Positions 7,659-32,574 of a stretch of 64,000 nucleotides of DNA are shown here, piece after piece; position 1 is the stretch's first letter; each line of letters opens with the position of its first letter. Made by a program: the position numbers and the translations under genes. A model generated the notes under the pieces. The model saw only the letters and a program-made list of their open reading frames with translations. It was not told the DNA's origin and did no database searches. Source of the stretch: an uncultured Candidatus Saccharibacteria bacterium (GTDB lineage: Bacteria > Patescibacteriota > UBA1384 > 2-12-FULL-50-11 > DASWYB01); the NCBI GenBank assembly GCA_964372935.1, contig CAYJRF010000003.1, positions 3,903 through 67,902 of the forward strand, written 5' to 3'.

Positions 7659-7706
7659 GGCACAGTCATTCTACTACAATGTCGACCACGAGAGTAACCG
7701 CCAAGG

Positions 7707-8621
7707 TTATCGCCGAGCCGAGGAAGGGCGCTCCGCCGTAACTGTCAGTCGGTCGCCTTGAACCGTGGCGGTAACAGTGCCGTTTTGATCGGTGCGATAG
7801 GTCGTAATCCCGCCCTCGGCCAACTTGGCCACCGCGCTAGGGGCGGGATGGCCGTACCGGTTGCCGGCGCCAACTTCGATCACGGCATATTTAGGATTGA
7901 CGGCCTGTAGAAAATTAACGGCCAAGCCGGTTTTGGATCCGTGATGGGGCACTTTCAGGACATCGGCCTGAAGTGGCAGGCCGGCGTTAAGAATAGCTTG
8001 TTCCTGACCCTCGTCGAGATCGCCAGTCAAAAGAAAACAGTAGGTTAAGTAGCACGCCCGCACGACGATCGTGGCGTCGTGCTGATCGTCGGGCCGCGCT
8101 CCGACCATGGATTGAGTCGGATGAAGCACCGTCAGTGATACTTCGTCAATGACAACGCTATCGCCCTGCTTGACAATTTTCGTCGGTATTCCGAGCGTGT
8201 TAATGTTACCGAGCAACTTGAGGTACTCGTTGGTGGTATGGATCGCCCCGGACAGCCACATTTGGCGCACGGTGTAGCGCTCCATGACAGCGTTTAGGCC
8301 AGTAATATGATCGGCGTGGTTATGAGTCGCGATTACCAAGGCAAAGTCGTGGGCAAAAAATGGCATAGCCGCGCCGAGACGGGTCAGAATGGCGCTGTCG
8401 GGACCGCCGTCAATCAGGATCCGTTCTCGGTGAGGCGTGGTGATCAAAATTGCGTCGCCTTGGCCAACGTCCAAAAAACGAACCGTCACTTTCGGGACTT
8501 GGTCGCTGGCTTGAGGGATTAGACCAGCCGAGACGACGACAATCGCCGCCAACGCCAGCAATCCCAAACCGAATTTAATCAATCGGGACACGCCGCCTCC
8601 AATCGGTATAGAGCCAGACAA
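7707..8621 (-). CDS. comEC: ComEC C-terminal module: one TM helix plus metallo-beta-lactamase domain
   Basis: 304 aa; N-terminal TM (FGLGLLALAAIVVVSAGLI) then MBL motifs FLDVGQGDA, HNHADH, HHGS; overlaps the upstream comEC membrane ORF by 47 nt in another frame. Confidence 0.72.
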   Translation of the reverse strand: MSGSIPIGGGVSRLIKFGLGLLALAAIVVVSAGLIPQASDQVPKVTVRFLDVGQGDAILITTPHRERILIDGGPDSAILTRLGAAMPFFAHDFALVIATHNHADHITGLNAVMERYTVRQMWLSGAIHTTNEYLKLLGNINTLGIPTKIVKQGDSVVIDEVSLTVLHPTQSMVGARPDDQHDATIVVRACYLTYCFLLTGDLDEGQEQAILNAGLPLQADVLKVPHHGSKTGLAVNFLQAVNPKYAVIEVGAGNRYGHPAPSAVAKLAEGGITTYRTDQNGTVTATVQGDRLTVTAERPSSARR

Positions 8622-10062
8622 GAATCACCCCATACGCCCCCAACATAATCGACAGGGGAAACTTTCCCAGGGTTAAGGCCGCGAACGGCAAATCGCTCGC
8701 CCATTGAATTGGTTTGACCATGGCAACAAGCACCGGATAAGCCAACCACGACACCAGTCGACCCAACGTTACGGAAATTATCGCCGCAACCGCCAGCATG
8801 GCGCTTAGTCCCATTGCCAGAGGAGCCAGCGCCAGAACGGCGGCGTTGACCGGCAATGACACGACGGAAAAGATTCCGAACTGACGAAGCAGGAGCGGCA
8901 AAACCATTATCTCGGCCGCCAGGGTTTCGCCCAATGACGGTCCAATCACTAACAGGCGCTTCGCCCAAGGCTCTAAGAGGGGTTGGACAAAAACAATTCC
9001 GGCAAATGCCAAAAAAGACAGTTGCCAACCCAAATTGTACATCAGCCCCAAGGGAGTGACCGCCGCCAAAATTGCCGCTCCCACCAAAAGGAGTGGCAGG
9101 CGGTGAGTCAGTCGGCCCGAAGCCACCGCCAAGAGCGACAGAGCCGCCACGATCGCCGCCCGCAGAATTGACGGGCTGGCGCCAGCCAAAAGAATGTAGC
9201 CAGCCAAACTGCCCACCGCGCCCCATAGACCGATCTGCGGCGAAAATCGGCTCCCCAGGCGTCGCACCAGCAACGCCACAATCGTCAGATTATAACCCGA
9301 CACCGCCACGAGATGGGTTGTGCCCGTGCGTTGGAGGTCTTGCTTAAAATCAGCATCGAATTCATCATGAGCCCCAGTTAACAAACCAACCGCTAGACTG
9401 GCGTAGGGCTCGGGCAGACTGGCGCCGATACCGCGTTGCACCTTGGCTCGCACGGCGTCGAGCCCCATCGGACCGCTTAGCCAAGACACGTCGCCGACTT
9501 CGGTGGCCGTGCCCAGAATATTATAGCCCGCGTTCGCCCGCCGAATATTGGGCTGAACCACCATTTTGATCAACACTCGACTGCCCGGAGCGAATCCCCA
9601 GTCGTAGGTTAGGAGACGGACATCGGCTCCGCGGTGCGGCCCAGCGAGTAACCTTAAAATGACCCGCTCACGGGGCGCCTGGCTAAAACGCACCGACTCG
9701 ACACGCGTTGGTCCGGCGTAGTCAAGATCGGCCGGCAGGGTCAACTCGGCGGCGGCGCCAGCCGCCAGGATTAAACCGGCCAGCCCCGCTATCGCCGCCC
9801 CCAGAATCAATCCCGAAAGACGTTTAACGATTAACGCTAGACCCAGAGCGGCCATCGCTCCGCCCCACCAGTAATGTCCCACCGGTTGGGAGATAAGCGA
9901 ACCGCCGGCAATGCCAACCAAAAACGACGCGCTCCACACAATTAACCGAAAGCGTTTCGGAAAATGTCGGGACTCGACCATACCCAGACCATACCACTGC
10001 AATTGGCGGAAAAAAACTTTCGCCTTGCTTCGCTGACGTTTTTCCGGTATAACATAGGCCAT
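8575..10062 (-). CDS. comEC: ComEC/Rec2 N-terminal polytopic membrane (competence) domain
   Basis: 495 aa; many TM helices; competence-domain motif TGTTHLVAVSGYNLTIV. Confidence 0.72.
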   Translation of the reverse strand: MAYVIPEKRQRSKAKVFFRQLQWYGLGMVESRHFPKRFRLIVWSASFLVGIAGGSLISQPVGHYWWGGAMAALGLALIVKRLSGLILGAAIAGLAGLILAAGAAAELTLPADLDYAGPTRVESVRFSQAPRERVILRLLAGPHRGADVRLLTYDWGFAPGSRVLIKMVVQPNIRRANAGYNILGTATEVGDVSWLSGPMGLDAVRAKVQRGIGASLPEPYASLAVGLLTGAHDEFDADFKQDLQRTGTTHLVAVSGYNLTIVALLVRRLGSRFSPQIGLWGAVGSLAGYILLAGASPSILRAAIVAALSLLAVASGRLTHRLPLLLVGAAILAAVTPLGLMYNLGWQLSFLAFAGIVFVQPLLEPWAKRLLVIGPSLGETLAAEIMVLPLLLRQFGIFSVVSLPVNAAVLALAPLAMGLSAMLAVAAIISVTLGRLVSWLAYPVLVAMVKPIQWASDLPFAALTLGKFPLSIMLGAYGVILVWLYTDWRRRVPID

Positions 10063-10549
10063 GAATCAAGAAAAAATCGTCAAGAAGGTTTCAAAAACTA
10101 ACCCGCGCCTTCAAGAACTCGAAAATCAATTGAAGCGCGTCGGGGCGGATTTTGACAATTACCGTAAACGCGTCAACGAAGAAAACCAGTCGATTTCCAG
10201 CCTCTCTCGAGCCCAAGCCCTGCTGGCGTTGACACCGGTGCTGGATAATTTTCGCCGCGCCACCAACCATCTGCCAGCGGAATTAAAAGATAACAACTGG
10301 GTCACTGGCGTGCTCTATATCGAAAAACAACTGGAACAAATTATGACCGACTTTGGTCTAATTCGCATTCCGACCATTGGGCAAAAATTTGACCCCAGCG
10401 TGCACGAAGCTGTCGGCTATGAACCGACCCCCACCATCGAGGCCAATTGCATCACCACCGAGATCGAGAGTGGTTACACCTTGAACGGCCGCTTACTCAA
10501 ACCGGCGAAAGTCAAAGTTAGTTCGGGCCCGATCCCAAAGAACGAGTAG
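10061..10549 (+). CDS. grpE: nucleotide exchange factor GrpE
   Basis: 162 aa; coiled-coil N-terminus with ADFDNYRKR motif and GrpE-like C-terminal beta domain. Confidence 0.82.
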   Translation: MNQEKIVKKVSKTNPRLQELENQLKRVGADFDNYRKRVNEENQSISSLSRAQALLALTPVLDNFRRATNHLPAELKDNNWVTGVLYIEKQLEQIMTDFGLIRIPTIGQKFDPSVHEAVGYEPTPTIEANCITTEIESGYTLNGRLLKPAKVKVSSGPIPKNE

Positions 10550-10597
10550 ACCCGACGCAGTTTGAGCGACGCTGGGCGAGACGGTTTTTTTCGTGAC

Positions 10598-10627
10598 TTG
10601 ACAAAAATGTAAAGTTTACTTTACAAT
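10598..10627 (+). promoter_or_regulatory. sigma70-like promoter (TTGACA-18-TACAAT) for dnaK, overlapped by the palindrome TGTAAAGT-tt-ACTTTACA (10608-10625)
   Basis: Read directly; GGAGG SD and ATG follow about 30 nt downstream. Confidence 0.45.
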
Positions 10628-10662
10628 AGGAGAAAACTAAGTCGCATTCACGGAGGAAGCAT

Positions 10663-12558
10663 ATGGGAAAAATTATCGGCATTGATTTGGGAACTACTAA
10701 TTCGGTCGGGGCGATGATGGAGGGCGGCAAATCGAAGGTTATTCCAACCGCCGAAGGCGGAAATATTACGCCGTCCATGGTGGCGGTGAATAAGGCCGGC
10801 GAGCGATTAGTCGGTGTTCTGGCTAAGCGCCAGAGCATTACTAACCCCGAAAACACCGTCTATTCGGTTAAACGTCTCATCGGTCGTCAGTTCGAAGACG
10901 CCGAGGTTCAGCACGACCAAAAGATTCTGCCGTACAAAATCGAAAAAGCCGGCGATAAGGTTAAAGTGGCGATGGGCGACAAAAGCTACAGCCCCGAGGA
11001 AATTTCGGCTTTTATTCTCCAAAAGATCAAGGCCGATGCCGAGGCGTATTGGAGCGAAAAGATCGCCGACGCCGTGATTACCGTGCCGGCATATTTTAAC
11101 GACGCCCAACGCCAGGCCACCAAGGACGCCGGGACAATCGCCGGCCTGAATGTCTTGCGCATCATCAATGAGCCAACCGCCGCCGCGCTGGCCTACGGTC
11201 TCGACAAGGCCGACAAAAAAGATCGCAAAGTGGCCGTGTTTGACTTTGGCGGCGGCACGTTCGATATTACGATTTTGGATATCGGGGTGGTCGAAGGCGA
11301 GTCCAGTTTCGAGGTATTGTCAACCAATGGCGATACCCATTTGGGAGGCGACGATGTTGACCGCAAAGTCATGGAGTGGATTATGGCGGAATTCAAGACC
11401 GAAGAGGGCATTGACCTTTCCCTTGACAAAATTGCTCTTCAGCGCATTAAGGAGGCCGCCGAAAAAGCAAAGATCGAGCTGTCGCAAAGTTTGGAGACAG
11501 AGATCAACCTCCCCTTCATCACCGCAGATAATACCGGTCCGAAACATCTCGTCAAAAAATTATCGCGCGCCAAGCTCGAAGAGCTGACTCGCCCGCTCAT
11601 TGAGCGTGCCAAGCCGATTTGCGAACAAGCCACCCGCGACGCCAAAGTGACCGTCAAAGACATTGACGAGGTTCTTTTAGTGGGCGGTATGACCCGTATG
11701 CCCATGATTCAGACAATGGTGAAAGACATCTTTGGCCGCGAAGCGTCGCGGGGCGTTAATCCCGACGAAGTCGTGGCGATTGGCGCGGCGATTCAAGGCG
11801 GTGTTTTGGGGGGCGAGGTAAAAGATATTCTCTTGCTGGACGTCACACCGTTAACTTTAGGCCTGGAGGTCGAAGGCGGCCTCATGGCGCCGCTGATTGA
11901 GCGCAACACCACCATCCCCACCAACAAAACCCAGGTGTTTTCCACCGCCGCGGACAGCCAGCCGAGTGTGGAGATTCACGTTTTACAGGGTGAGCGGTCT
12001 ATGGCGTCCGATAACAAGACTCTTGGTCGCTTCATGCTCGACGGCATACCGGCGGCGCCGCGCGGCGTACCCCAAGTTGAAGTCACTTTTGATCTCGATG
12101 CCAACGGCATCCTCAAAGTTACCGCCAAAGACAAGGCCACCGGTAAGGCTCAAGACATTACCATTACCGCCTCCGGCACCCTGTCAAAAGACGAGATTGA
12201 ACGAATGAAAACCGAAGCCGAGGCTCACCGGGCCGATGACGACAAAAAACGGGCGCTGGTTGAAACTCGGAATCTCGCGGAACGGATCGTCTACATGAGC
12301 GAAAAAACCCTCAAAGACGCCGGAGATAAAACCAAGGACGAGGACAAACGCGCCGTCGAGGACGCCATCACCGCCCTTAAATTGGCCATGCGAAGCGACA
12401 ACGCCGACGAAATTAAAGCCAAAACCGACCAGCTGAGCGCGGCGGCGCAGAAGGTCGGAGCCCAGATGTACGAGGACGCCAAAGAGCCGAAGTCGCCCGA
12501 AGCCAACCCAGCCGACGAGACCGGCCAAGAACCGGCGGTTTCGGACGATAAAAAATAG
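10663..12558 (+). CDS. dnaK: molecular chaperone DnaK (Hsp70)
   Basis: 631 aa; [30 protein letters not shown] signatures. Confidence 0.95.
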
Positions 12559-15726: not shown

Positions 15727-17307
15727 TTAGCGCGCCCCGATTAATCCCGATATAAGACTCTCGCCCACCATATCAACCGATGGCGACAGTCCCATTACAG
15801 CCAAGATAGTTGGCGCGACGTCGGCCAGCATGCCGACTTGCGACATGAGCGCTAATTGTCGTTTGTCCGCGGCCCGAGGCTGTCTGAACGACGGATGAAC
15901 GACGACGAATGGCACCGGATTGACGGTGTGCTCCTTGTCAACCGTGCCGCTTCTTGGATCAATCATTTGCTCAACATTGCCATGATCGGCCGTGATGACC
16001 AGCCATTCTCGGTTGGTCTCGGCATGAGTGATCAGTTGCCCGAGCTGTTCGTCAACGCAACTTACCGCCAGACACGCCGCCGCAAAATTGCCGGTATGGC
16101 CAACCATGTCTAAGTTGGCGTAATTCATCACCACAAAATCCGCAGGGAGGTGTTTTTGGGCGTTCAAGTAGCCGGCGGTAATAGCCGACGCCGACATCGC
16201 CGGCGTCTGGTCGAATGACGCCACCTTGATCGACGGCACGAGGAGCCAATCTTCGTAGGGGTGTTTCGTTTCCAAATGGCCGTTAAAAAAATAGGTGACG
16301 TGGGCATACTTCTCGGTTTCGGCAATGTGGAGTTGACTTTTCCCGTTGTCGGCCAAAATGTCGGCGAGAGTTCCGCGAGGCTTCGGAAGGGGATAGGCGA
16401 CGTCAATGGCGTTCCCAGCTTTCAATGGCAAATCGGCCAACAAATAATCAGTCATCGTAACGACGGTCAGATCGTTGACGTTTGTTACGGCGAGCGCCAC
16501 CAATTGCCGGATGCGGTCGGGGCGATAGTTAGTAAAGATAACCGTCTCGCCCGGCTGGATCCAGGCCAGTGGACGATCATTGGCATCGGTCAAAATGGTC
16601 GGAGGCACGGTTTCGTCGCTCTCGCCTTGAACGTAGGCCCGCTTTAGCGCCAACTCCAGCGTTGAAGCGCGCAGGCGGCCTCGGCCAGTAAGAGCGCTGA
16701 AGGCTTCTTGGGTCCGATTGGTGTTGTTGTCGCGATCCATGGCAAAATATCGTCCCGAGATCGAGGCCATTACCCCGAAGGGGAATCTTTTCAAAACAGA
16801 CTCAATTTTGACAGCATCACTCAACGCCACTCGGGGGGGACTATCGCGTCCGTCGCTGATCGCGTGGACTGCCACCCGTTGAACCCCTTGGTCGCGGGCC
16901 CAAGAAAGCAACGATAGCATATGATCGATGTGGCCGTGAACGCCGCCGGACGAAATTAGCCCGACGATATGGAGTGTTCGGTTAGGTTGGGCGAGGATAC
17001 CTCGCAGGGCGGCGGCGATGATACGGTTGCGGCGAAAATCGCCACTCTTAATCGAGCCGTTGATGATTTGAAATGCTTGCGGCAAAACTTGACCGGTACC
17101 GATGGCGATATGCCCGACCTCGCTGTTGCCCGGCTCGCCATTATCTAGACCAACTTCCGTCCCAGCCGCCAGCAAACGTTGCGACGGATAGTTGGCCAAG
17201 ACGTAATCCAACGCCGGCGTGGCGGTTTGCAACAGAGCGTTGCCTTCGGATTCAGCCGATAAGCCCATGCCATCACAAATTGCTAATGTTACCCTTGCTT
17301 GAGTCAC
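15727..17307 (-). CDS. gpmI: 2,3-bisphosphoglycerate-independent phosphoglycerate mutase
   Basis: 526 aa; iPGM-like throughout (LAICDGMG, alkaline-phosphatase-like core). Confidence 0.88.
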   Translation of the reverse strand: MTQARVTLAICDGMGLSAESEGNALLQTATPALDYVLANYPSQRLLAAGTEVGLDNGEPGNSEVGHIAIGTGQVLPQAFQIINGSIKSGDFRRNRIIAAALRGILAQPNRTLHIVGLISSGGVHGHIDHMLSLLSWARDQGVQRVAVHAISDGRDSPPRVALSDAVKIESVLKRFPFGVMASISGRYFAMDRDNNTNRTQEAFSALTGRGRLRASTLELALKRAYVQGESDETVPPTILTDANDRPLAWIQPGETVIFTNYRPDRIRQLVALAVTNVNDLTVVTMTDYLLADLPLKAGNAIDVAYPLPKPRGTLADILADNGKSQLHIAETEKYAHVTYFFNGHLETKHPYEDWLLVPSIKVASFDQTPAMSASAITAGYLNAQKHLPADFVVMNYANLDMVGHTGNFAAACLAVSCVDEQLGQLITHAETNREWLVITADHGNVEQMIDPRSGTVDKEHTVNPVPFVVVHPSFRQPRAADKRQLALMSQVGMLADVAPTILAVMGLSPSVDMVGESLISGLIGAR

Positions 17308-19580
17308 GTCAAACCCCGTGGCGATGGATGAGCTTTCTTCTCCGAGTGGCCTTGTTCGGCGGGGGGTACTTTCAACCCCGAAGTCAGCGCCGCGCTGGGA
17401 ATGGAGGTCGGCCCCGGTTGAGGCAATGGCGGAGGCGGGGGATTGCTGGCAATCAATTCCGGAGTAGTCATGGGTACGGTGAATGTGAACGTCGAGCCCT
17501 TACCGACCTCACTCTCCACCGCCACTTGGCCGCCCATTAATTCAATAATTTTCTTGCTAATATACAGGCCCAACCCAGTGCCTTGAATCCCGGCGATGTC
17601 TTTGCGATCGGCGCGATTAAACTTCACGAACAAATGATTAATCATGTCTTTGGGAATACCAACCCCAGAATCCGCCACCTTAAACATCAGCTGCTTGTTG
17701 TCCGTCTCGGCAACATAGCACTTAACCCAACCCTTGGAGGTATATTTGATCGAGTTGCCAATAAAGTTAATCAATACTCGGTAAATATGATTCGGGTCGC
17801 CGAAGGCGTTCGGCAAGCTTTTGGCTGGGGCCACGAAGGATAAGTCAAGAGACTTTTTCTTGGCGTTGACTTGGAGCTCCTCTGTCGCTCGACTAACAAG
17901 GTCTGCGAACGAAAACTCTCGCTTAATAACCTTGAGGCGACCGCTTTCGATGCGCGAAACATTTAACAGATCTTCGACTAAATTGGCCAGCCGATCAGCC
18001 GAGGTTGAAACCTTAACTAAAAACTGGCGCGCTTTGGTGTCAACTTTGCCCATATCGTCATCAAGAATCATCGACAAGTACCCTTTAATCGCCGCCGTCG
18101 GCGTGAGTAATTCGTGCGACGCGATCGACACAAACTCCGATTTCATTTGATCTTCTTCCCAAAAACGAGCTTTTTCGATGGCGTTGGCGGTCTGGTTCGC
18201 CACGATCGTCAAAAACTCCACCTCGTTGCTGGAAAACGCGTCGCCCGACAGTTTTTCTCCCACCATAAATACGCCGATGGTCTTGGCGCCGATTTTAATT
18301 GGCAAGGCGATGGCGATTTTAAGATCGTCAATATTTTTGAGCAAACTGTGCAACGTCGAAACCGCCCGACCTTTGGCATCGCTCTTACCGTCATATTCAT
18401 GGCGCATTTCGTCGGCGATCAATATTTGAGGATTTTCCACAAAACTCTCCAGTAACGAACTGCCGCTTGGGAGTTGAAGAATGGACGGGTCAGCATAGCC
18501 GATCTGAAAGACCTGTTTAATCTCAATGCCTTTTTCGGTCTGATTAAACGTAATTACGCCAGCGTGGCTTAATCGCAATTCGGCCTTAATCAAGGTGATG
18601 AGTGATTGCATAACCTGTGCCAGGTCTGATGACCCCGCCAATTGCTGTGACAGCTTGGCCAGAACGGCTTGCGGCTCATATTCTCCCTTGAAGAGATATT
18701 TATCCGTCACGGTTGTGAGCCACCGACGCAAAGGTTCGAACCCTAGGGCGATAAAGAGCGCCGCGACCATGTTGGCGACAAATGTCTTCGCGTCGAGCAC
18801 CGTCCCACTCCCAAAAATTGTTGTAAAGAAGAACACGACCATACTGTATGTCCCAAGCGTAAAGAGCAACAGCCCGGAATAAACAACGGTCCGACGGATG
18901 ATGATCCGGATGTCGAATAGACGATGAGCCACAATGGCGTAAGCAGTAGCGGCGGTAAAAATAAGAGTATAAGTAGGGCCAAGAAAAAGCAACGACATAT
19001 TGTTGAACGCGACAACAAGAACAAAGTTTGTCATGAATGTAAGAAAAGCGCTACCGATTACCCCAACGATTAGATATTGTAACTGTGCCCGCTGCATACC
19101 CCTTGAGACTCTGTACCGCTTGACCAATAAATACATCGAACTCAAGACAAGAAGCCCTGTTGTCACCGCAAAAATAGTGATAGCAGGCCCAGGCACTGGA
19201 GTTGCGTCCTTACCAATTCCACGAATCGAGGAAAAGATTAAGGATGTTCTCGTGAGGAAAAGGACAATTGCACTCCACACTATCAAAAAGGTCAACAGAG
19301 ATTTCTTTAATAAGATTCTATTCTGGGGAAATGTATGTACCGTAAAGAAAAGAAAAAGAGCATAAAGAACGGCAAAAAACATTACCCATCTGATAGAATC
19401 AAGAGTCTCGGTTGATGAAATTTGGTGCAAGGAACTATAGTTGGCTATGCCCCACGCCGCCGAGGAAAAAGTAAGAGCCAGAAAAAACCGATGCGTATAG
19501 CTATTGGGCTTGTGATTGAAGGTGAAGACACCGACGACTATACCGGTAAAAACCGAAACTATAAGGATTGCGAGTTCCAT
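17304..19580 (-). CDS. sensor histidine kinase (multi-TM N-terminal sensor domain, GAF domain, HisKA, HATPase)
   Basis: 758 aa; about 7 N-terminal TM helices, H-box SIASHELLTPT, G-boxes DSGVGIP and GTGLGL; the 5' two-thirds of the gene is AT-rich. Confidence 0.85.
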   Translation of the reverse strand: MELAILIVSVFTGIVVGVFTFNHKPNSYTHRFFLALTFSSAAWGIANYSSLHQISSTETLDSIRWVMFFAVLYALFLFFTVHTFPQNRILLKKSLLTFLIVWSAIVLFLTRTSLIFSSIRGIGKDATPVPGPAITIFAVTTGLLVLSSMYLLVKRYRVSRGMQRAQLQYLIVGVIGSAFLTFMTNFVLVVAFNNMSLLFLGPTYTLIFTAATAYAIVAHRLFDIRIIIRRTVVYSGLLLFTLGTYSMVVFFFTTIFGSGTVLDAKTFVANMVAALFIALGFEPLRRWLTTVTDKYLFKGEYEPQAVLAKLSQQLAGSSDLAQVMQSLITLIKAELRLSHAGVITFNQTEKGIEIKQVFQIGYADPSILQLPSGSSLLESFVENPQILIADEMRHEYDGKSDAKGRAVSTLHSLLKNIDDLKIAIALPIKIGAKTIGVFMVGEKLSGDAFSSNEVEFLTIVANQTANAIEKARFWEEDQMKSEFVSIASHELLTPTAAIKGYLSMILDDDMGKVDTKARQFLVKVSTSADRLANLVEDLLNVSRIESGRLKVIKREFSFADLVSRATEELQVNAKKKSLDLSFVAPAKSLPNAFGDPNHIYRVLINFIGNSIKYTSKGWVKCYVAETDNKQLMFKVADSGVGIPKDMINHLFVKFNRADRKDIAGIQGTGLGLYISKKIIELMGGQVAVESEVGKGSTFTFTVPMTTPELIASNPPPPPLPQPGPTSIPSAALTSGLKVPPAEQGHSEKKAHPSPRGLT

Positions 19581-19616
19581 GCCCCTCTAATTAATCCTTT
19601 CCGCAAGTGCAGCCGA

Positions 19617-20732
19617 CTACTGTTCTCTACTATATTCTAGAGAGATAGCTCCTATGGGTGGGCTAAAGTCGTAGCCTACTACCATGCGTTTTTTCTCAGC
19701 TCCAGCCTTTACCATCATAGCCGTTAATTCTTCTTCAGTAAATCCGCTCTCATAAGAACGAATGCCAGATTCTGCTAACCAATGGCTCTCACGTACATAC
19801 GACTTGTAAAGATCGGAAATTTTTTGTCCACGTCTTGCTTTGAGCATGTGATTAATAAATACTGCCGCCATACCAACTTTACCCAATAAACGAAGACGCG
19901 ACCGGGCTCGTTTGAGTATTGTAGAATACCGTGTTGTATCAGCAACAATCAGTTTACCTCCCGGTCTCAACTTGCTCAATGCCGCAGCAAAAAACTCTAC
20001 GACCCGCTGATGAGAATGTTCATGTAGAGCCAATGTTGAAACTATCACATCGCACTCTTGTTCATCAATGGATTCTAAAATAATTCCGTCTCCTTGCACT
20101 AAAACTATTTTGTCTCTAACGCGGGAAAAGGATTTTTTGCCCAGAATCTCGATCATGTCTTTTGATAAGACGTGCGGCTCTTTTGCGATGTCAATAATCT
20201 TTATAATAAAATTATTTCCGATGAAATTCTGTAAACAATCGGCAATAAAATAACCTAAAACCCCAAAGCCACCAAACGGGTCACAAATGACAACTTTTCT
20301 TTGCTGACTCACCGCCTTTAAATGTCGAATTAGTCCTGGATCCAGAAACTTGGTGAGGATCTTATTGATGAATTCTCTATTAGGCCCAAGCTGTACCAAC
20401 GCCAGATCCCTCATAACACCCTGGCTAATAGACATAAGCCGTGAGGGTTCCAAAACAAGTGACCCTATGACAGCCGCCGTTGCTAAATCATCGTGTCGTA
20501 CAAACTGTTGAGCTATTTTTAGGAGTGGATGATGACTCTTGAGGAGAGCCGGATGTATGTAGCCCCCGTACCATCTACGTCTGACGAGAGCGACACGGAC
20601 TTCAGGATACTGTGTAAAAATGTTTTCATCAAGAACCACTACTTCCCCGCATCTATAAGGTTCCACCGGTCTGGGTCTTGCGTCGTCCCATAGCTCATCC
20701 TGCTTCAAACATAGCATCGGCCGAAAGACCAT
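19617..20732 (-). CDS. class I SAM-dependent methyltransferase with an N-terminal domain of unknown function of about 130 aa
   Basis: 371 aa; motif I VICDPFGGFGVLG, acidic post-I IIDIAKE, motif IV DVIVSTLALHE; AT-rich. Confidence 0.72.
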   Translation of the reverse strand: MVFRPMLCLKQDELWDDARPRPVEPYRCGEVVVLDENIFTQYPEVRVALVRRRWYGGYIHPALLKSHHPLLKIAQQFVRHDDLATAAVIGSLVLEPSRLMSISQGVMRDLALVQLGPNREFINKILTKFLDPGLIRHLKAVSQQRKVVICDPFGGFGVLGYFIADCLQNFIGNNFIIKIIDIAKEPHVLSKDMIEILGKKSFSRVRDKIVLVQGDGIILESIDEQECDVIVSTLALHEHSHQRVVEFFAAALSKLRPGGKLIVADTTRYSTILKRARSRLRLLGKVGMAAVFINHMLKARRGQKISDLYKSYVRESHWLAESGIRSYESGFTEEELTAMMVKAGAEKKRMVVGYDFSPPIGAISLEYSREQ

Positions 20733-21739
20733 TACACTATCCTTGGCGAACGTCGGCCAGAAATTTTGGTAAAATTCGGATTGAGAGGTCGGCCGAGACG
20801 GAAAAGGACTTGGGGTCGATACCTAGAGTCAATTTCTGCTCGGAGCCTAGGAGAGAGCGTTGGCACTTCAATTGGAGCAGCAGCGATACAGTGAGCAAAA
20901 TTATGCCTAGCCCCATCTAGAAGAACTCGCTCCATGAGACGGCCACTCCCTAACCAAGCTTCCGGGCCGTCGTACTCACTGCCAATGATTACGTGAAGCG
21001 GTGAACTAGAAAACGTTCCACGCCAATAGAGTGCTTCGGCTTCGGGATTGATGATTTCACCTAGCTTCCGATACGAAGAACGAGAGTTCGGCAACTTCTC
21101 AACTAACGCCCCTAGTGACATGCCAGTTTCAGGAGTATCAATCGGATCGATTAATTCGAATAATTCCCTGACCATCGGCTTCATTGACAATGCCAACTTG
21201 GTACCTTCGCCGACAAGTTCAGCTATCCTTAACCGAGCCTGGCTGTCAACGATTGAAAAAAGTTTTATTTCGGGTTCAGAGAATCTTTCTGCCTCATCAA
21301 GGAATGTGGAGCTCAGATCAGAAGAATAGTTACCTCTGTTGGTATGGCGTTTAGTCAAACCATCAAACAATTCTTCGAAGGGAAGTCGAGCGTTTACTGG
21401 AATGAATTTTACCGACGCTACCTTAATAGCATGGACAGTTTGGGCCATAATCTCCACTTTTCCGTCAAAACCCCAATGAGCCGCGGCCACAACAAGATTC
21501 TCAATAAAGGCGCCTAGCCCAATAAATGTTTCGCGCAGGGTTGGATCGCCCACAGCGAGTGTGTGTTCCGGATCGCGATAGAGAAACAAAGATTCACCCT
21601 TCACCTCAACAAGCCACGGTTGGGTGTTATGAGCCGAGGGAGCGAGAATTGCGTATCTAAGCCAAAATTTAATTTTCTCACTTATGTCAGCCGATACAGG
21701 AAAGTCCCGTTCGTCAATTTGCCAAACGGAAGTACTCAT
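20732..21739 (-). CDS. nitroreductase-superfamily FMN oxidoreductase (Acg-family-like / SagB-like dehydrogenase)
   Basis: 335 aa; signature APSAHNTQPW near the N-terminus; length fits double half-domain Acg-type proteins; shares a stop/start nucleotide with the methyltransferase gene. Confidence 0.7.
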   Translation of the reverse strand: MSTSVWQIDERDFPVSADISEKIKFWLRYAILAPSAHNTQPWLVEVKGESLFLYRDPEHTLAVGDPTLRETFIGLGAFIENLVVAAAHWGFDGKVEIMAQTVHAIKVASVKFIPVNARLPFEELFDGLTKRHTNRGNYSSDLSSTFLDEAERFSEPEIKLFSIVDSQARLRIAELVGEGTKLALSMKPMVRELFELIDPIDTPETGMSLGALVEKLPNSRSSYRKLGEIINPEAEALYWRGTFSSSPLHVIIGSEYDGPEAWLGSGRLMERVLLDGARHNFAHCIAAAPIEVPTLSPRLRAEIDSRYRPQVLFRLGRPLNPNFTKISGRRSPRIV

Positions 21740-21741
21740 AG

Positions 21742-22971
21742 TTAGTCCTTTCCAAAAAGGAGATCTGTACTCTCGATAAATTCCGCTTTTTGCCGAGATC
21801 GCGCTAATTTGGCCGCCTTGGTCATATACTCTGGATCAAATTCAGCATCAAAATGAATTTCGTAACGACCGGACGGCATAGATAGCCCCGCCAAAATACG
21901 TCTGGCGACGTAGGCAACCGTAGCCCCCGAAAGAGTAGCCGCCGTGCCCAACTGCGGCCAAGTAGGCAACTTTGTCCCAACTTGGGTCAAGGAAAGTTGC
22001 ATTCTGGGCACGACATCGGGGCCAACAATACGATTAGCTAATTTAACTTTCTCGGCCATTGTTGGGTTAGACGGCAAGTTGCGAAGACGATCTTCCGATA
22101 CTCGGCCATGAAACAGGAGCCGTTCGGGTTCAAGGTCAAATCGTTCAACGTCAATAATAGTGTTGTCGCCATTATCGGTTGCCATCACAACCGGGATTCT
22201 CAAAGCTCGAGCCATGAAACGCGACTCAATCTTTAATTTAATGTTGTCCATCTCTTCGATGAAGAGTTGGAGTTTTTCCCCCTTGCCTTCGCCCGAGACA
22301 AAAAATTTTTTCATGTTCGCCTCGGTCAATCCCTCGCTAAAAACCTCGAGTTCTTGGTAAGGATTCATTTCATAAACTCGACGCGCCGTCATGATTGATT
22401 TTTTTTGTGCTAAATCTGTCACTGAAGCCGAAAGTCGATTAAGGTTGGTAATCGATAACGTGTCCAAATCAGCGATACGCATTTTGCCGCCACCACCCGT
22501 GAGGATAAGCCCATTAACCACTGACGAACCAACACTTAATCCAGCTATGCCGATGCGGGACTGATAAAATTTTTCTTGCTCTTCCAATGTGATGAGAAAT
22601 TTATTGCGAGCTGTCCGTAGCTTAAAATAATCGCTTGGATCCGGGAGGTGGACCAGAGTCCAACGCCAAGGGAAATACACCCACAATCCAACCGTATCGA
22701 ACTCTCGTTCGCCAATGTAACGGTTCTTATAACGCGTTAAAGTCTGTTTGTACTCGGGACTGCCGGGAGCAACAAAAGGAAAGTCAATTTTAAACAAATC
22801 CTCGATAGCCTCGGCAAGGGAGTCAACGATTTCGTAAACTTCGTGATTTTTTCGCAGCTCAGAGACCCGCCTTCGGTCGGGTTCTTGGTCTAGGTCAAGG
22901 ATTTCCGGTTGCCATTTAGTTTCGCTTAACTTTGGATCAACACCGCTGTCCATGTTTAGCGTCTTATCCAT
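21742..22971 (-). CDS. E1-like ThiF/MoeB-family adenylyltransferase with an N-terminal extension of about 115 aa
   Basis: 409 aa; core from about residue 115: ...EEQEKFYQSRIGIAGLSVGSSVVNGLILTGGGGKMRIADLDTLSITNLNRL... and ...VMATDNGDNT...; extension of unknown fold. Confidence 0.72.
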   Translation of the reverse strand: MDKTLNMDSGVDPKLSETKWQPEILDLDQEPDRRRVSELRKNHEVYEIVDSLAEAIEDLFKIDFPFVAPGSPEYKQTLTRYKNRYIGEREFDTVGLWVYFPWRWTLVHLPDPSDYFKLRTARNKFLITLEEQEKFYQSRIGIAGLSVGSSVVNGLILTGGGGKMRIADLDTLSITNLNRLSASVTDLAQKKSIMTARRVYEMNPYQELEVFSEGLTEANMKKFFVSGEGKGEKLQLFIEEMDNIKLKIESRFMARALRIPVVMATDNGDNTIIDVERFDLEPERLLFHGRVSEDRLRNLPSNPTMAEKVKLANRIVGPDVVPRMQLSLTQVGTKLPTWPQLGTAATLSGATVAYVARRILAGLSMPSGRYEIHFDAEFDPEYMTKAAKLARSRQKAEFIESTDLLFGKD

Positions 22972-24455
22972 TTGTGTTTAATTTTAATTTCAAAATCCTC
23001 ATTACCAAACTCCATAAAGTGAATTATCGGATCCGCTCTTTCCTTAATTTCTTGGTATAGCCGATTATATTCGCTATTCTGGTCTTTTAAGTTACTAATA
23101 ATCGACTTTAGAATTCGATTTTTTATGCCCGCCAATGGAGAAACGTCTTTTTTTAACTCAATATACAGATGCAAGCTTTGCTCTTGAGTATGTTCGTCGT
23201 AGAGCGTCTTAACGATAAATTTTCCGGTGACAAAAGCGTCTGTCTTTGACTTTTCTATGCCTCTTTTGATGTTTTCGGGAAAAATATCCAAAGCGTAGAA
23301 AGTTGTTGAGACATCCATCCGATAGTACAGAGCCAAATGAGGCTGCTGGGCATAAACGAGCAGTGGCTTAGGTAATCGGCCACGCCAAGGAGAGATTAAA
23401 TCATTAAGTTCAACTGGGTTAATGACTCTGCCTCGATCTAAAATTTGATACCGGATAAGAGGCAGGGAATTATTAGCCGTAAAAATTAGGTCCTCACCGG
23501 CTTGCTCAAAATAGCGTAGCTCGGGGCGATAATGAACGAACGTCGGCAAAACTGTAGTGCCGGGGAAAAGGCTATAGAAAAGTTTCCGGTCGCGGTCCGC
23601 GATTCGACGCAACAGAATGGAAAGTGGATTTTCATGGCCAAGCAAACCAGCGTCTGCCGTGCCATAGATGCTATACAACGTTTTTTCTGGATGTCTACCT
23701 TTAATGTGTTTGATAACATAGTCACGCCAGGCCTCCGAAATAGATTCCCCAGCTACAACTATCTTAAGGTTTAGTAAATCGAAGCGAACCCGTTCTTCGA
23801 CCCCACTATCAATAACGTCCTTAACGAAGGGTGGATAGCCCATGAGTACAATCTGATCAAAGAACGGAGCAAGTACCTTAAAGATGTTGACAATCGCCGC
23901 TTTATCAATGCCTGGCGTAATCGCAACCAAACGATGTCCCTGATCGGCTAGTCCTTGTATCGCGCCGAGGGTGTAGGTTCCACCAATCCAAGTCCCCATG
24001 GCGAAAGCGATAATCACCAAGGTTTCTCTATCTTTGGTGGCGAAGCCCTGTAAAAAAATGTCCTCGTGAAGTTTTATTGACTCTGCCAGGCTTTGATTGC
24101 CACGAGGCCACAAATGCGATTGCCCGCTCGAACCAGAACTCATAGAAACAATGCGGACGCTTTCGGTACATCCGTCCCACAACATATCATCAAGAGGATA
24201 TTGTTTTAAATAATTTTCTTTCGTTACTGCTGGTAATAATCGGAAGTCTTCTGGGCTCTTAATATTTTCTGAGTTAACGCGATGCCGTTTAAGAAAATCT
24301 TTATAGGCGGGGACACGTTGAGCGGCTTCTTGAAAAGTTTTTAGGGCGTTATTGAACCCAGGCAAATCAACTGACTTCCTAGCTTCGAGCTTATTTGATT
24401 CCCTAGATTTAATCATTTTTGAACCTAAAATGAGGCGTGAAACCCCCAACAACAT
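22956..24455 (-). CDS. adenylate-forming enzyme of the PaaK / F390-synthetase / CapK family
   Basis: 499 aa; AMP-binding-like SSGSSGQSH and C-terminal ...GEDLIFTANNSLPLIRYQILDRGRV... matching the PaaK-family C-terminus; an internal Met giving a start at 24416 is equally plausible. Confidence 0.68.
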   Translation of the reverse strand: MLLGVSRLILGSKMIKSRESNKLEARKSVDLPGFNNALKTFQEAAQRVPAYKDFLKRHRVNSENIKSPEDFRLLPAVTKENYLKQYPLDDMLWDGCTESVRIVSMSSGSSGQSHLWPRGNQSLAESIKLHEDIFLQGFATKDRETLVIIAFAMGTWIGGTYTLGAIQGLADQGHRLVAITPGIDKAAIVNIFKVLAPFFDQIVLMGYPPFVKDVIDSGVEERVRFDLLNLKIVVAGESISEAWRDYVIKHIKGRHPEKTLYSIYGTADAGLLGHENPLSILLRRIADRDRKLFYSLFPGTTVLPTFVHYRPELRYFEQAGEDLIFTANNSLPLIRYQILDRGRVINPVELNDLISPWRGRLPKPLLVYAQQPHLALYYRMDVSTTFYALDIFPENIKRGIEKSKTDAFVTGKFIVKTLYDEHTQEQSLHLYIELKKDVSPLAGIKNRILKSIISNLKDQNSEYNRLYQEIKERADPIIHFMEFGNEDFEIKIKHKWIRR

Positions 24456-24490
24456 ACCAATTTAATCGGCTTCACACAACAACACTCCAT
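24425..24490 (-). CDS. candidate 21-aa Cys-rich peptide ORF (MECCCVKPIKLVCCWGFHASF), possible precursor peptide; speculative
   Basis: Reverse complement of 24425-24490 gives ATG...TAG with 5 Cys in 21 codons; ends 8 nt before the alternative start (24416) of the PaaK-like gene; no convincing SD; derived from an aca-repeat on the plus strand, so it may be chance. Confidence 0.2.
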   Translation of the reverse strand: MECCCVKPIKLVCCWGFHASF

Positions 24491-24547
24491 ATCGTTGACA
24501 GGCTAAGAGATACATTTAATCAGTCTCGTTGTCTCTTTTGATTTATT

Positions 24548-24580
24548 CAGCGATTCGGGCGCGGAACGCCCGAATCGCTG
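24548..24580. promoter_or_regulatory. perfect inverted repeat (14-bp arms, 5-nt spacer) cagcgattcgggcg-cggaa-cgcccgaatcgctg in the intergenic region upstream of the operon
   Basis: Read directly; no U-tract follows on either strand, so more likely an operator or RNA structure than a terminator. Confidence 0.4.
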
Positions 24581-24595
24581 ACAAGAAACCGCCAA

Positions 24596-24859
24596 TCACC
24601 TAAAGTGGCGGAGGGTAAGCTCGCAAGCTACCCTTACCACTGCCAGAAGCGTAAGCGGCAGCAAGATCGCCCCAAACAACAGAGCGATCCCCAGCGTTCC
24701 CTGATCGGCGCGGAACGCCAGCACCACAAGAGATATGGCGATGAGCGCCGCCAGCGCTTGGACGGCGGTATAGGCCGCCTTGATCAGGCGCGGCCCGATC
24801 AAGCGTTCCTCCTCAAACGTCCTGTCAAAAAGACAGGCGAGCCAGGTTGGCAGATTCAC
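24596..24859 (-). CDS. small hypothetical membrane protein (87 aa, 2 TM)
   Basis: Hydrophobic helices AALIAISLVVLAF and ALLFGAILLPLTLLAVV; no motif. Confidence 0.35.
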   Translation of the reverse strand: MNLPTWLACLFDRTFEEERLIGPRLIKAAYTAVQALAALIAISLVVLAFRADQGTLGIALLFGAILLPLTLLAVVRVACELTLRHFR

Positions 24860-24946
24860 TTTTCCATCCCCCCTTTCCCACGAGATACTCCCCGATTATA
24901 GTATTTATTATTCTTCAAAACAAGCTCCCGCCACCCCATGGGCGAA

Positions 24947-24975
24947 TTGACACCGAAACAAGAAAGGTATTATAT
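24947..24975 (+). promoter_or_regulatory. putative sigma70-like promoter TTGACA-17-TTATAT upstream of the receiver gene
   Basis: Followed by AAAGGAG SD and ATG at 24993. Confidence 0.35.
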
Positions 24976-24992
24976 AAAGGAAAGGAGCGCGT

Positions 24993-25379
24993 ATGGAGCA
25001 ACCACAGGGACAGTCTATCCTAATAGTCGATGATGACGATACTCTTCGAGACATGTACCAAGAATACCTTGAAGCGGCTGGGTTTAAGGTTGAAGCAGCG
25101 CGCGACGGCGAAGAAGGTTTGGAAAAAACCAAAAAAATTCGGCCGATTATTGTCTTGCTCGATCTAATGATGCCCAAAATGAACGGCATCGAAGTCCTGC
25201 GCCACTTAAAAGCCGATAAAGAGCTCAAAGAAATTCCAGTAATCGTGTTCACGGCCTTGATCCAGGATCTTGAAAAGCAGGAAAGCTTTGCCGCCGGAGC
25301 CTCCGATTATGTCGTTAAAACCGAAGTTACGCCCAAGGGAATTCTCGACCGAATTCGCCAATTCACGGCTAAGCAGTAG
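24993..25379 (+). CDS. stand-alone response-regulator receiver (CheY-like) protein
   Basis: 128 aa; LIVDDDDTL..., phospho-acceptor Asp in VLLDLMMP, conserved T and K positions; no output domain. Confidence 0.85.
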   Translation: MEQPQGQSILIVDDDDTLRDMYQEYLEAAGFKVEAARDGEEGLEKTKKIRPIIVLLDLMMPKMNGIEVLRHLKADKELKEIPVIVFTALIQDLEKQESFAAGASDYVVKTEVTPKGILDRIRQFTAKQ

Positions 25380-25450
25380 TTGGGCTCGCGCTTGGCGTTG
25401 CGTTCGAACGTACCGACTCAACTGGATGATTTAACAGGATAATATAACTC

Positions 25451-27049
25451 TTGAGCCCCCGTCGCGCCCCCGACGATATTGAGCCGTCACTTTTTCAGCT
25501 TCAACGCTCCACCGAGACGTTTTTTCCGGCATTTGATCGCCTTCATAACTGGTTGCGGATGCGCAACCGACCGTATTATCGTTGGCATATTCGGCCGTGG
25601 GCAACGGTCATTCACTGGTTGATTGTGATCGCGTTTTTATTTTTTCAGATTTTCTATGTCAGCTCGGTGTTGTTGAGCTACCCCAAGCTGGCCGCCGGTC
25701 AAGCGTCGCCGCCGCCGACAGAGACTCCCACCCCCACGCCGGAACCAACAAGCGACCCGACAGACACCCCCACCCCCACGCCGGATCCGACAAGCGACCC
25801 GACAGACACCCCCACCCCCACGCCTACTCCAACACCCACCCCAGCTCCGGCGGGGAGTACGCCAACTTCCACCCCAACGCCGCCACCCAAGTTACCGTCG
25901 GCAGTCACCCCAACCCCGGAAACCGGCACACGAGCCGCAACGCTCCGAACTGATGCAATTATTCAGCCCGCCTCTACTCCGGAGACGGCCATCAATAACC
26001 AGAACGCGCCAGAAAACGATAATAGGGGGATTATTGATCAAATTAAAACGTCCGTCGGTTTGTCGAGTTATCAAAAGTCCCGACGACAAGATTCAACCCC
26101 GAGCGGCCTTATCGAACAAGCGGCCAAGTCTACCGCCACCCGAGCCCTGGCGATCGCTGGTACCGGTTATCTCCTGATCGCCGGGCCGCAAATCCTCCAA
26201 ATCTTGGGGTCATTGCCTTCTGTCGCCCAAGTTTTGTGGTACAACTTTTTGGGTTTACTTGGGTTGCGTAAACGGATCATGCCGTGGGGCCGCGTTCTTG
26301 ATAGCATTACCGAAAAGCCGATCGCCCTGGCCACTGTTACTTTGCACGACCGAGACCACTATGGCCGTGTGGTCAACCGCTATGTTACCGACAAAACCGG
26401 ACGCTTTGCTTTCATGACCCAGCCGGGAAATTATTCCCTTTGGACACGCCGGTCCGGATACAAATTTCCGTCCCAAATTGCCATTCGCTCCTACCACGGC
26501 TGGACATTTTGGATTGGCCGAGAGGGAATGGCGGTATTCGATTTGTTTTGCGATCCGGTTGACTTAACTTCGCCTATTCGGCGCTACCTGCGACAATTCG
26601 CGAACGTTTTTGCCATATTACAAATTCCTCTTCTCGTCGCCGGCACGGTTGCGACAATATTTTATTACTCCCTCAACCCAAGTCTGGTGGCAATACTTTT
26701 CCTGATGCTCTACAGTGTCATGTGGTTTCAGGAGTGGACAAGGTGGCATCAAGGAAGGCACGTGTTGCGGATCGCCGACAACGCCAATGTCCCAATGTCG
26801 TTCGCGATCGTGCGATTTGTCAACACCAGAACCAATCAGACGGTACTGACACGCGCCACCGACACCAACGGTGAAATATATGTTCTTATTCCACCGGGCG
26901 AATATACCCTCAATATTACAAACCCTCATTCCGGCACCACCATTACCCGCCAAGCCAAATTACCGAGTGGTATTTTCCCAAACAGCGTCACTTATCGTTT
27001 TAGCGATCCGACGGTTTTAGAGCCAGCAAAAATACGTCTGTCGGTATAG
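25451..27049 (+). CDS. membrane protein with Pro/Thr-rich low-complexity linker and two carboxypeptidase-regulatory-like (transthyretin-fold) domains
   Basis: 532 aa; N-terminal TM, PTPTPEPTSDPTDTPTPTP repeats, then GRVLDSITEKPIALATVTLHD...TDKTGRFAF and a second similar module, plus extra TM helices. Confidence 0.55.
   Translation: MSPRRAPDDIEPSLFQLQRSTETFFPAFDRLHNWLRMRNRPYYRWHIRPWATVIHWLIVIAFLFFQIFYVSSVLLSYPKLAAGQASPPPTETPTPTPEPTSDPTDTPTPTPDPTSDPTDTPTPTPTPTPTPAPAGSTPTSTPTPPPKLPSAVTPTPETGTRAATLRTDAIIQPASTPETAINNQNAPENDNRGIIDQIKTSVGLSSYQKSRRQDSTPSGLIEQAAKSTATRALAIAGTGYLLIAGPQILQILGSLPSVAQVLWYNFLGLLGLRKRIMPWGRVLDSITEKPIALATVTLHDRDHYGRVVNRYVTDKTGRFAFMTQPGNYSLWTRRSGYKFPSQIAIRSYHGWTFWIGREGMAVFDLFCDPVDLTSPIRRYLRQFANVFAILQIPLLVAGTVATIFYYSLNPSLVAILFLMLYSVMWFQEWTRWHQGRHVLRIADNANVPMSFAIVRFVNTRTNQTVLTRATDTNGEIYVLIPPGEYTLNITNPHSGTTITRQAKLPSGIFPNSVTYRFSDPTVLEPAKIRLSV
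25739..25822 (+). repeat. 42-bp tandem duplication (2 copies, 39/42 identical) encoding the PEPTSDPTDTPTPT / PDPTSDPTDTPTPT repeats
   Basis: Unit ccggaaccaacaagcgacccgacagacacccccacccccacg followed directly by ccggatccgacaagcgacccgacagacacccccacccccacg. Confidence 0.8.

Positions 27050-32497: not shown

Positions 32498-32574
<77 letters not shown>

Follow-up and report, generated by a model that had tools for sequence, protein, structure and literature searches.

A ligase-cyclase-oxidase gene cassette with a linked seven-transmembrane histidine kinase in Saccharibacteria, a candidate unit for making and sensing an oxazolone-type small molecule

What does a compact run of low-GC genes, set among housekeeping genes, make or sense in an uncultured Candidatus Saccharibacteria bacterium? 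The question is raised by a 64,000-nucleotide stretch of contig CAYJRF010000003.1 (assembly GCA_964372935.1), hereafter the window, whose minus strand encodes a PaaK-fold adenylate-forming ligase (22956..24416), a ThiF-like ATP-dependent cyclase (21742..22971), an Acg-like flavin-dependent oxidase (FDO) from the nitroreductase superfamily (NTR; 20732..21739), a class-I S-adenosylmethionine (SAM) methyltransferase (MT; 19617..20732) and a sensor histidine kinase (HK) with a HisKA_7TM-GAF-HisKA-HATPase architecture (17304..19580). A stand-alone CheY-like receiver is encoded divergently at 24993..25379 on the plus strand (Response_reg, 5.7e-26). An earlier, sequence-only reading had placed these six open reading frames (ORFs) at these positions, with the ligase starting at 24455, described their tight packing and pointed out that the cassette contains no YcaO, transporter or protease, all of which we confirm; its family assignments also hold in Pfam and NCBIfam searches. 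Its further claim that the combination matches no described system does not stand, as the ThiF and NTR genes, and with them the MT gene, follow the logic of the OxzAB, TyzACB, TrzAS and stieleriacine clusters (PMC10404671, PMC12856293, PMC12479983). We put at roughly one half the probability that the cassette is a synthesis-plus-sensing unit for an oxazolone-type or dehydro-N-acyl-amino-acid small molecule.

Judged by its sequence, the ThiF-like protein is a member of the TyzB/OxzB/TrzS clade of oxazolone cyclases and a split form of the N-terminal half of TrzS (Rv1355c). It matched positions 7-341 (of 722) of the NCBIfam model NF005901 ('Rv1355c family') with an E-value of 1.2e-95 and 321 bits, and no other ThiF model of that collection exceeded 55 bits; Pfam recognised only the ThiF core. 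Identity to named Rv1355c-family proteins is 32-38%, and to annotated Rhodococcus and Mycobacterium genes 36-38%. A concatenate of the ThiF and NTR proteins aligns co-linearly with the ~760-residue 'Rv1355c family' fusions, at 30-35% identity across 90-97% of its length. When the ThiF protein was aligned with its split and fused relatives, the nucleotide loop proved to be kept (G141, G144, S146 and G148), as are the other family-invariant residues (D168, D170, N176, N178, R179, K191, D242, K247, R251, D269 and R277) and the DxERFD motif; D242 and D269 fall in two invariant Asp columns near TrzS D217, although the TrzS residue numbering cannot be mapped exactly. The closest solved structures are ThiF itself and TcdA, which is a cyclodehydratase.

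The gene for the oxidase lies directly beside that for the cyclase, and its product belongs, marginally, to the Acg family over its full length (NF047509, 200.2 bits with a cut-off of 199; residues 26-331 align with positions 2-314 of the 319 in the model). A further match is to the Rv1355c model, in its C-terminal half. Its sole real relative in the PDB is Acg (2YMV), which is likewise the sole PDB relative reported for the Acg-like FDO of TrzS. The NTR and the fused FDO domains have in common the motifs APSAHNTQPW (APSxxNxQPW) and RHTNR (RxTNR); the Gln of the G-G-x-x-x-Q-R motif is a Glu in the window protein. We propose that this enzyme, of subgroup FDO-A or FDO-B, is a Cα-Cβ desaturase.

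These two proteins place the cassette in known chemistry. TrzS turns N-acyl tryptophan into N-acyl tryptazolones by a cyclisation that depends on ATP and a desaturation that depends on O2 (Kleetz et al. 2025, PMC12856293), while TyzB together with TyzC (PMC10404671) and OxzB (bioRxiv 10.1101/2020.06.11.147165) perform the same reactions on N-acyl tyrosine or phenylalanine. In all three cases the cyclase and desaturase roles were shown experimentally (PMC12856293, PMC10404671, bioRxiv 10.1101/2020.06.11.147165), and according to a 2025 review no ThiF-like chemistry other than oxazolone formation is known to act on a small molecule (PMC12596934). Homology with TrzS, TyzB and OxzB allows a cyclisation and a desaturation step to be assigned to the window cassette. 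Its catalytic core thus lies within the oxazolone and N-acyl-dehydro-amino-acid family, and the cassette is not categorically new.

The known pathways start with an N-acyltransferase or N-acyl-amino-acid synthase (OxzA, TyzA, TrzA or NasY). No such gene adjoins the window cyclase, and the ligase occupies that position. The cassette has no GNAT or Acetyltransf_5-type gene, and no ORF of the window matches the acyltransferase of locus L088 (L-numbers denote the related loci that we compared with the window) or A4, the small protein of a ligase-less cassette class described below. The ligase had no Pfam match and scored far under the cut-offs of the NCBIfam PaaK models (37 bits with a cut-off of 700, and 30 bits with a cut-off of 646). 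Equivalence to PaaK was rejected, since no paa genes are present and the fold alone is shared; the current family name, 'phenylacetate-CoA ligase family protein', is probably misleading. The adenylation motifs SxSSGSSG and YGTADAG and the C-terminal K480 are invariant in the family, which occurs in at least 555 reference species; the nearest ligase in the reference genomes, from a Saccharibacteria metagenome-assembled genome, is 49% identical. In its AlphaFold2 (AF2) model (mean predicted local distance difference test score, pLDDT, 84.6), the nearest folds are PaaK1/2, BT_0428, AjiA1, ClxA and HCL, followed by the GH3 amido synthetases. Several of these neighbours form amide or ester bonds straight from the acyl-adenylate, without CoA (PMC7204872, PMC9400959, PMC12519233). 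The ligase has the same fold as NatL2/AjiA1, the ClxA benzoxazole ligases and the GH3 acyl-acid amido synthetases, but the identity in structural alignments is 14-16% and the pathway context is different. We infer that the ligase makes the N-acyl amino acid, in place of the OxzA/TyzA/TrzA acyltransferase. More distant homologues, at 35-37% identity, occur in Nostocales (L034-L083; Nostoc, Anabaena and Calothrix) without ThiF or NTR, and in 27 Nostocales loci the ligase homologue adjoins a divergent ~585-residue Ser/Thr protein kinase (e.g., L053, 7989-9746).

Conservation of the gene set as a neighbourhood in other genomes, which the sequence-only reading had named as a test of its own proposal, was indeed observed. 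Relatives in reference genomes were found by scanning with an alignment of the ligase; the corresponding scan with the single ThiF protein gave no confirmed relative. Among the best 80 ligase-seeded loci, a ThiF gene adjoins the ligase in 29, the hosts being Patescibacteria (Saccharibacteria and Yanofsky-, Nomura-, Magasanik- and Nealsonbacteria), a gammaproteobacterium, Streptomyces and Nocardia. The patescibacterial loci also carry genes for an NTR and a histidine kinase, and at least five arrangements of the genes occur among them. In metagenome loci seeded with ThiF, the 22 well-flanked split forms include a ligase in 17, an NTR in 15 and a kinase in 15, and all 15 loci with both ligase and NTR have the kinase; neither a ligase nor a cassette-type kinase accompanies any of the six fused ThiF-NTR genes of this set. 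The fusions closest to the window, in L086 and L087, have a ligase homologue (313 and 288 bits) on their flanks, together with seven-transmembrane (7TM) kinases. Of 117 loci with a ThiF cyclase, the ligase is present in 71, a different protein of ~230-270 residues in 18 and both in none, a pattern that is expected if one function has been replaced by another.

The sequence-only reading had called the histidine kinase an orphan; it turns out to be a conserved member of the cassette and, of all partners, the one linked to it most tightly. Using residues 1-300 of the window kinase, i.e., its 7TM region alone, as query, we found a kinase in 33 of 46 loci with ligase, ThiF and NTR (many of the other 13 are truncated contigs), as against 0/54 loci with the ligase only, 2/17 with ligase and ThiF and 2/45 with ThiF but no ligase. 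The similarity to the kinases of L003, L086 and L087 runs through the 7TM region, and a GAF domain is present in just 6 of 38 cassette kinases. The linkage through the 7TM region and the rarity of GAF indicate that the kinase is a core member of the cassette and that the membrane domain is its conserved sensor. From this linkage we consider the kinase a putative receptor for the cassette product. The receiver is a possible partner of the kinase: stand-alone receivers occur near the cassette in L007, L016, L017, L020, L086, L093, L109, L114 and L162, and carry no DNA-binding output domain. The genetic arrangement recalls CqsA-CqsS, LuxM-LuxN, LqsA-LqsS and AgrBD-AgrC, in which an autoinducer synthase gene lies beside that of a multi-pass membrane histidine kinase and is inherited with it. 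Such pairs resemble the window in combining a synthase with a polytopic kinase that has no large extracellular domain, but there is no sequence homology. The literature searched contained no link of oxazolones or ThiF with a histidine kinase, no ligand for HisKA_7TM and no report of quorum sensing in Patescibacteria.

A second class of cassettes emerged from the same comparison. It combines ThiF, alone or with an FDO, with the ~230-270-residue protein mentioned above, a ~715-residue kinase with 7TMR-DISMED2 and 7TMR-DISM_7TM domains and a ~360-residue receiver-kinase hybrid (L131, L139, L141, L147, L149, L152, L156-L159, L161, L163 and L166-L168; e.g., L157, 7349-11306). The 7TMR-DISM kinase and the hybrid are both present in 14 of the 18 ligase-less loci with the small protein. 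The latter carries the motif CGLWNS...GYGIGS and had no match in Pfam, NCBIfam or the PDB; its identification as an acyltransferase was not supported, with an hhalign probability of 0.2% against the Acetyltransf_5 protein of Nocardia. That classical Acetyltransf_5 gene neighbours a Nocardia fusion. In addition, a Streptomyces sp. NBC_01426 plasmid carries a split ThiF with a GNAT-family gene after it (L174, 4947-6721), and a Mycobacterium dioxanotrophicus plasmid carries an Rv1355c-family fusion divergent from a cytochrome P450 gene (L173, 2553-6154). A search of plasmids placed no ligase, and no complete cassette, on a mobile plasmid of the typical kind: actinobacterial plasmids had TrzS-type or ThiF plus GNAT genes only, and the ligase was hit twice, in a Nonomuraea record (11.85 Mb) and in a Gemmatirosa replicon (1.1 Mb), both predicted to be non-mobilizable.

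The methyltransferase combines a DPFGGGG SAM motif with a conserved, family-specific N-terminal domain. The family is rare, with nine representatives among 1.84 billion proteins, and a word-seeded search retrieved just one relative. All three contexts that we examined are this cassette, namely the window, L169 (ligase-MT-ThiF) and L172 (NTR-MT-HK-iPGM, where iPGM is 2,3-bisphosphoglycerate-independent phosphoglycerate mutase). Its AF2 model (pLDDT 89.9) resembles small-molecule methyltransferases generically, with a template modelling (TM) score of about 0.4. We take the protein to be a tailoring enzyme specific to the cassette. In L086, L108, L114 and L162 the slot of the methyltransferase is filled by an α/β-hydrolase. 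About a quarter of the cassettes (L086, 4438-5490; L087, 4402-5466; L089, L093, L095, L118, L120 and L162) encode, directly upstream of the ligase, a ~350-residue ELFV-family dehydrogenase that the window lacks. This enzyme is closest to the tryptophan dehydrogenase ScyB (279 bits, versus 57 bits for any glutamate dehydrogenase model), and its position hints at an amino acid as the probable source of the acyl donor, which would be a 2-oxo or aryl acid.

Taken as a pathway, the cassette would work as follows. The PaaK-fold ligase would adenylate a carboxylic acid and attach it to an amino acid at the amino group, giving an N-acyl amino acid in a step that would need neither acyl-CoA nor an N-acyl-amino-acid synthase. 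The ThiF-like enzyme would then adenylate the free carboxylate of this intermediate, allowing the amide oxygen to close a 5(4H)-oxazolone ring, and the Acg-like flavoenzyme would desaturate the Cα-Cβ bond with O2. The SAM methyltransferase may decorate the product, a step with precedent in Stieleria, where clusters of an N-acyl-amino-acid synthase, an MT, a ThiF and a nitroreductase yield O- or C-methylated N-acyl dehydrotyrosines (PMC12479983). Finally, the 7TM kinase would sense the hydrophobic product in the membrane and signal to the stand-alone receiver. The amide-forming activity and substrates of the ligase, the identity of the product and its binding by the kinase are predictions of this scheme.

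How does this scheme compare with the described systems? The ThiF and NTR of the window correspond co-linearly, in split form, to the TrzS fusion in TrzAS (Rv1356c/Rv1355c) of mycobacteria and Rhodococcus. The window differs from TrzAS in having a PaaK-fold ligase instead of a TrzA-type acyltransferase, in its separate enzymes, in an NTR of a distinct subgroup and in the addition of the MT and the 7TM kinase; the hosts are mostly Patescibacteria for the ligase cassette and mycolic-acid bacteria for TrzAS. OxzAB of Pseudoalteromonas rubra and TyzACB of M. tuberculosis follow the same logic, in which an N-acyl amino acid undergoes ThiF cyclisation and then desaturation by a nitroreductase-superfamily enzyme, and TyzB and TyzC are separate proteins like the window pair. 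OxzA and TyzA, however, use acyl-CoA or acyl-acyl carrier protein and have a fold like that of acyl-homoserine lactone synthases and FeeM, whereas the window has an adenylate-forming enzyme in that role, and no sensor kinase has been reported in those clusters. The clusters for stieleriacine, for thalassotalic acid and for kyonggic acid (NasY, ThiF and nitroreductase, with or without an MT) comprise the same four kinds of component (PMC12479983), with an N-acyl-amino-acid synthase where the window has its ligase and no kinase described. The replacement of the N-acyltransferase by a ligase, the linked 7TM kinase, the rare dedicated methyltransferase and the centring on Patescibacteria all appear to be undescribed, and the literature searched contained no report of a ligase-dependent, kinase-coupled oxazolone cassette.

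Several observations weigh against the synthesis-and-sensing scheme. The NTR scores 200 bits against the Acg/Rv3131 model and 70 against the C-terminal half of Rv1355c; the NTRs of split cassettes form a separate subgroup without the ~20-residue insertion of TrzS-type FDOs; and Grigg et al. regard Acg-type (FDO-B) enzymes as outside oxazolone synthesis (PMC10404671). The experimentally tested residues of TrzS, D217 in the ThiF part and R540 and Q651 in the FDO (M. smegmatis numbering), could not be mapped by number. The roles of the ligase, MT and kinase are predicted: a fold search cannot tell amide-forming from acyl-CoA ligase activity, and the ligase could equally be an acyl-CoA ligase that feeds an unlinked acyltransferase. 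Adjacency of the kinase reveals co-inheritance, which is not ligand sensing, and the linkage of the receiver is weak, at 3 of the 22 loci with sufficient flanks. Attempts to demonstrate that the small protein of ligase-less cassettes is an acyltransferase did not succeed. Nocardia, finally, has the ligase and ThiF with neither NTR nor kinase, implying that this pair can work without a desaturase or sensor. In one such case (L004, Nocardia macrotermitis, 1-12516), the two genes lie beside CHAT, AAA ATPase, radical-SAM, FHA and PP2C genes, which looks like a defence- or signalling-type neighbourhood.

The same chemistry might instead yield a membrane, stress-protective or antimicrobial metabolite, with the kinase regulating the operon on another cue such as redox state or O2 perceived via GAF or the membrane. 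We regard this as possible, though at clearly less than even odds. Oxazolones are largely cell-associated in M. tuberculosis, RHA1 and M. smegmatis and are tied to oxidative-stress and antibiotic responses (PMC10404671, PMC12856293), while the related N-acyl tyrosines are antimicrobial (PMC12479983); moreover, Acg-family genes of M. tuberculosis form part of the DosR regulon, a regulon under the control of GAF kinases (PMC10404671), and the window kinase has a GAF domain. Against another cue, it is the 7TM domain rather than the infrequent GAF that is conserved among the cassette kinases, and the nearby receivers have no DNA-binding output domain. Furthermore, two unrelated families of 7TM kinases have become linked to ThiF-FDO cassettes independently, for which a lipophilic ligand is an easier explanation than a common external cue. 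E1-like and nitroreductase-fold enzymes also co-occur in pathways for thiazole/oxazole-modified microcins (TOMMs), and the sequence-only reading had pointed to such peptide or aminoacyl-nucleotide tailoring, as by MccB, PaaA or TOMM enzymes. The product would then be a ribosomally synthesized and post-translationally modified peptide (RiPP) or similar compound, the E1-like enzyme acting on a peptide C-terminus and the NTR serving as a SagB/McbC-type dehydrogenase. The proposed Cys-rich 21-residue ORF does exist upstream of the ligase (MECCCVKPIKLVCCWGFHASF, 24425-24490, minus strand), but it has no counterpart upstream of eight related ligases; the dehydrogenase gene takes its place in L086 and L087, and clustering of the neighbourhoods gave no conserved small ORF. 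The N-terminal extension of the ThiF protein (YFPW...RTxRNK), which had been read as a possible peptide clamp or RiPP recognition element (RRE), is family-wide, actinobacterial TrzS-type proteins included, and no PqqD/RRE model gave a match at E≤0.01. With a cyclase that groups with small-molecule enzymes at 321 bits and contains no cysteine, and a cassette devoid of YcaO, protease and transporter, we consider a peptide product very unlikely.

Much the same applies to protein conjugation, whether by an E1/ubiquitin-like or anti-phage system or by the ligase and ThiF covalently modifying the kinase. The ThiF Rossmann core gives weak PADLOC matches to E1-E2 systems, the Nocardia neighbourhood described above would suit such a role, and the ligase is linked to kinases, of the histidine type here and of the Ser/Thr type in Nostocales. 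The complete absence of cysteines from the ThiF protein nevertheless makes an E1 thioester impossible, no ubiquitin-like, E2 or JAB genes occur in any neighbourhood examined, and the cassette, which lies amid housekeeping genes, matched no PADLOC defence system, so that conjugation is also very unlikely. Hardest to credit is cofactor chemistry, in which an F390-synthetase-like ligase would act on the flavin or deazaflavin of the Acg-like protein, or ThiF would take part in sulfur transfer to molybdenum cofactor or thiamin. The ligase does give a remote match to the coenzyme F390 synthetase model (5e-7), and the M. tuberculosis homologues were historically annotated as MoeY and MoeW. The F390 match, however, reaches 29 bits with a cut-off of 459; neither ThiS nor MoaD is encoded, and a rhodanese domain and a CxxC motif are likewise absent; and the MoeW and MoeY annotations have been overturned by experiment (PMC10404671, PMC12856293).

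Is the cassette, as had been suggested, an acquired island? Its composition is anomalous: GC content in 1-kb windows is 43-48% across the cassette and about 55-56% in the flanks, so that the drop noted earlier is real, although the flanks do not reach the 60% then given. The four enzyme genes have a GC fraction of 0.45 and a GC fraction at third codon positions (GC3) of 0.43 (0.39-0.48 for single genes), as compared with 0.558±0.048 and 0.624±0.079 for the 43 other long ORFs of the window; the HK is intermediate (0.48 and 0.556). In L172, however, the order NTR-MT-HK-iPGM is kept without any GC anomaly, cassette and flanks having the same GC content, and the HK and iPGM are 56% and 57% identical to those of the window. 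This synteny indicates that the position of the cassette is ancestral at that depth rather than the result of a recent insertion, and we have set aside a recent horizontal island, even though the enzyme genes lie about 11 GC points under the genome average. The patchy distribution and rearrangement of the family fit horizontal spread over longer times. Three further low-GC patches occur elsewhere in the window. One of them (32919-36463, minus strand; GC 0.42-0.44) encodes the small and large subunits of a class I ribonucleotide reductase directly downstream of two tRNA-Met(CAU) genes (32498-32574 and 32713-32787); the low-GC ORFs at 42419-43363 and 58952-59407 had no Pfam match.

The genes of the cassette are closely packed. 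The ligase probably starts at M14 (position 24416), as in public gene calls, giving a protein of 486 residues, while the longest ORF starts at 24455. The ligase and ThiF genes overlap by 16 nt, or are 2 nt apart if the start of the public call is used; 2 nt also separate ThiF from NTR, NTR and MT overlap by 1 nt, and MT and HK are 36 nt apart. The HK stop overlaps the start of the iPGM gene by 4 nt (17304-17307). This overlap, together with the adjacency of HK and iPGM in the ~57% identical relative L172 (2294-6160), suggests that the glycolytic gene is co-transcribed with the cassette. Between the cassette and the receiver lies a gene for an 87-residue DUF4282 membrane protein (24596-24859, minus strand), with a GC content native to the genome and not found beside cassettes elsewhere. 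The palindrome reported upstream of the ligase, at the upstream boundary of the cassette, is a perfect inverted repeat, with arms of 15 nt rather than 14 (24547-24561 and 24567-24581, minus strand) and a predicted RNA fold of -34.6 kcal/mol (z = -5.5). As it begins 15 nt past the stop of the DUF4282 gene, it reads as the 3' hairpin of that gene, and its interpretation as an operator of the cassette was rejected. The hairpin lacks a U-tract, and a terminator scan did not report it. Promoter and terminator scans of the region performed no better than on shuffled sequence, and the cassette leader contains no riboswitch or other Rfam family.

Elsewhere, the window encodes a lamin-tail-domain protein (37298-39508, minus strand), ComEC (8575-10062, minus strand) and a CarboxypepD_reg-domain protein (25451-27049, plus strand), as well as a tRNA-Ile with the anticodon UAU, which is uncommon in bacteria (39840-39915, minus strand).

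Bacterial N-acyl oxazolones were discovered between 2020 and 2025 (PMC10404671, PMC12856293, bioRxiv 10.1101/2020.06.11.147165). Their role was called "a major unresolved question" by the authors of the TrzAS study, who speculated on signalling from chemical resemblance alone (PMC12856293). The cassette described here would extend the host range of this chemistry from Proteobacteria, Actinomycetota and Planctomycetota into Patescibacteria and other groups. The family is widespread in Patescibacteria, CPR episymbionts that are generally described as having reduced lipid and CoA metabolism, and an ATP-dependent, probably CoA-independent route to an N-acyl amino acid would suit such organisms. 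The cassette would further give these metabolites a candidate receptor that is defined genetically. The retention of the 7TM kinase through changes of gene order, along with a second kinase family on the second cassette class, makes the signalling hypothesis directly testable. Tentatively, the two classes may represent a new family of chemical communication systems, in which a CoA-independent ligase, a cyclase and an oxidase make an oxazolone or dehydro-N-acyl-amino-acid autoinducer that is perceived by a dedicated HisKA_7TM kinase, with a parallel, acyltransferase-type version coupled to 7TMR-DISM kinases in other phyla. If this is true, oxazolones would gain a physiological role, and both 7TM sensor domains their first class of ligands.

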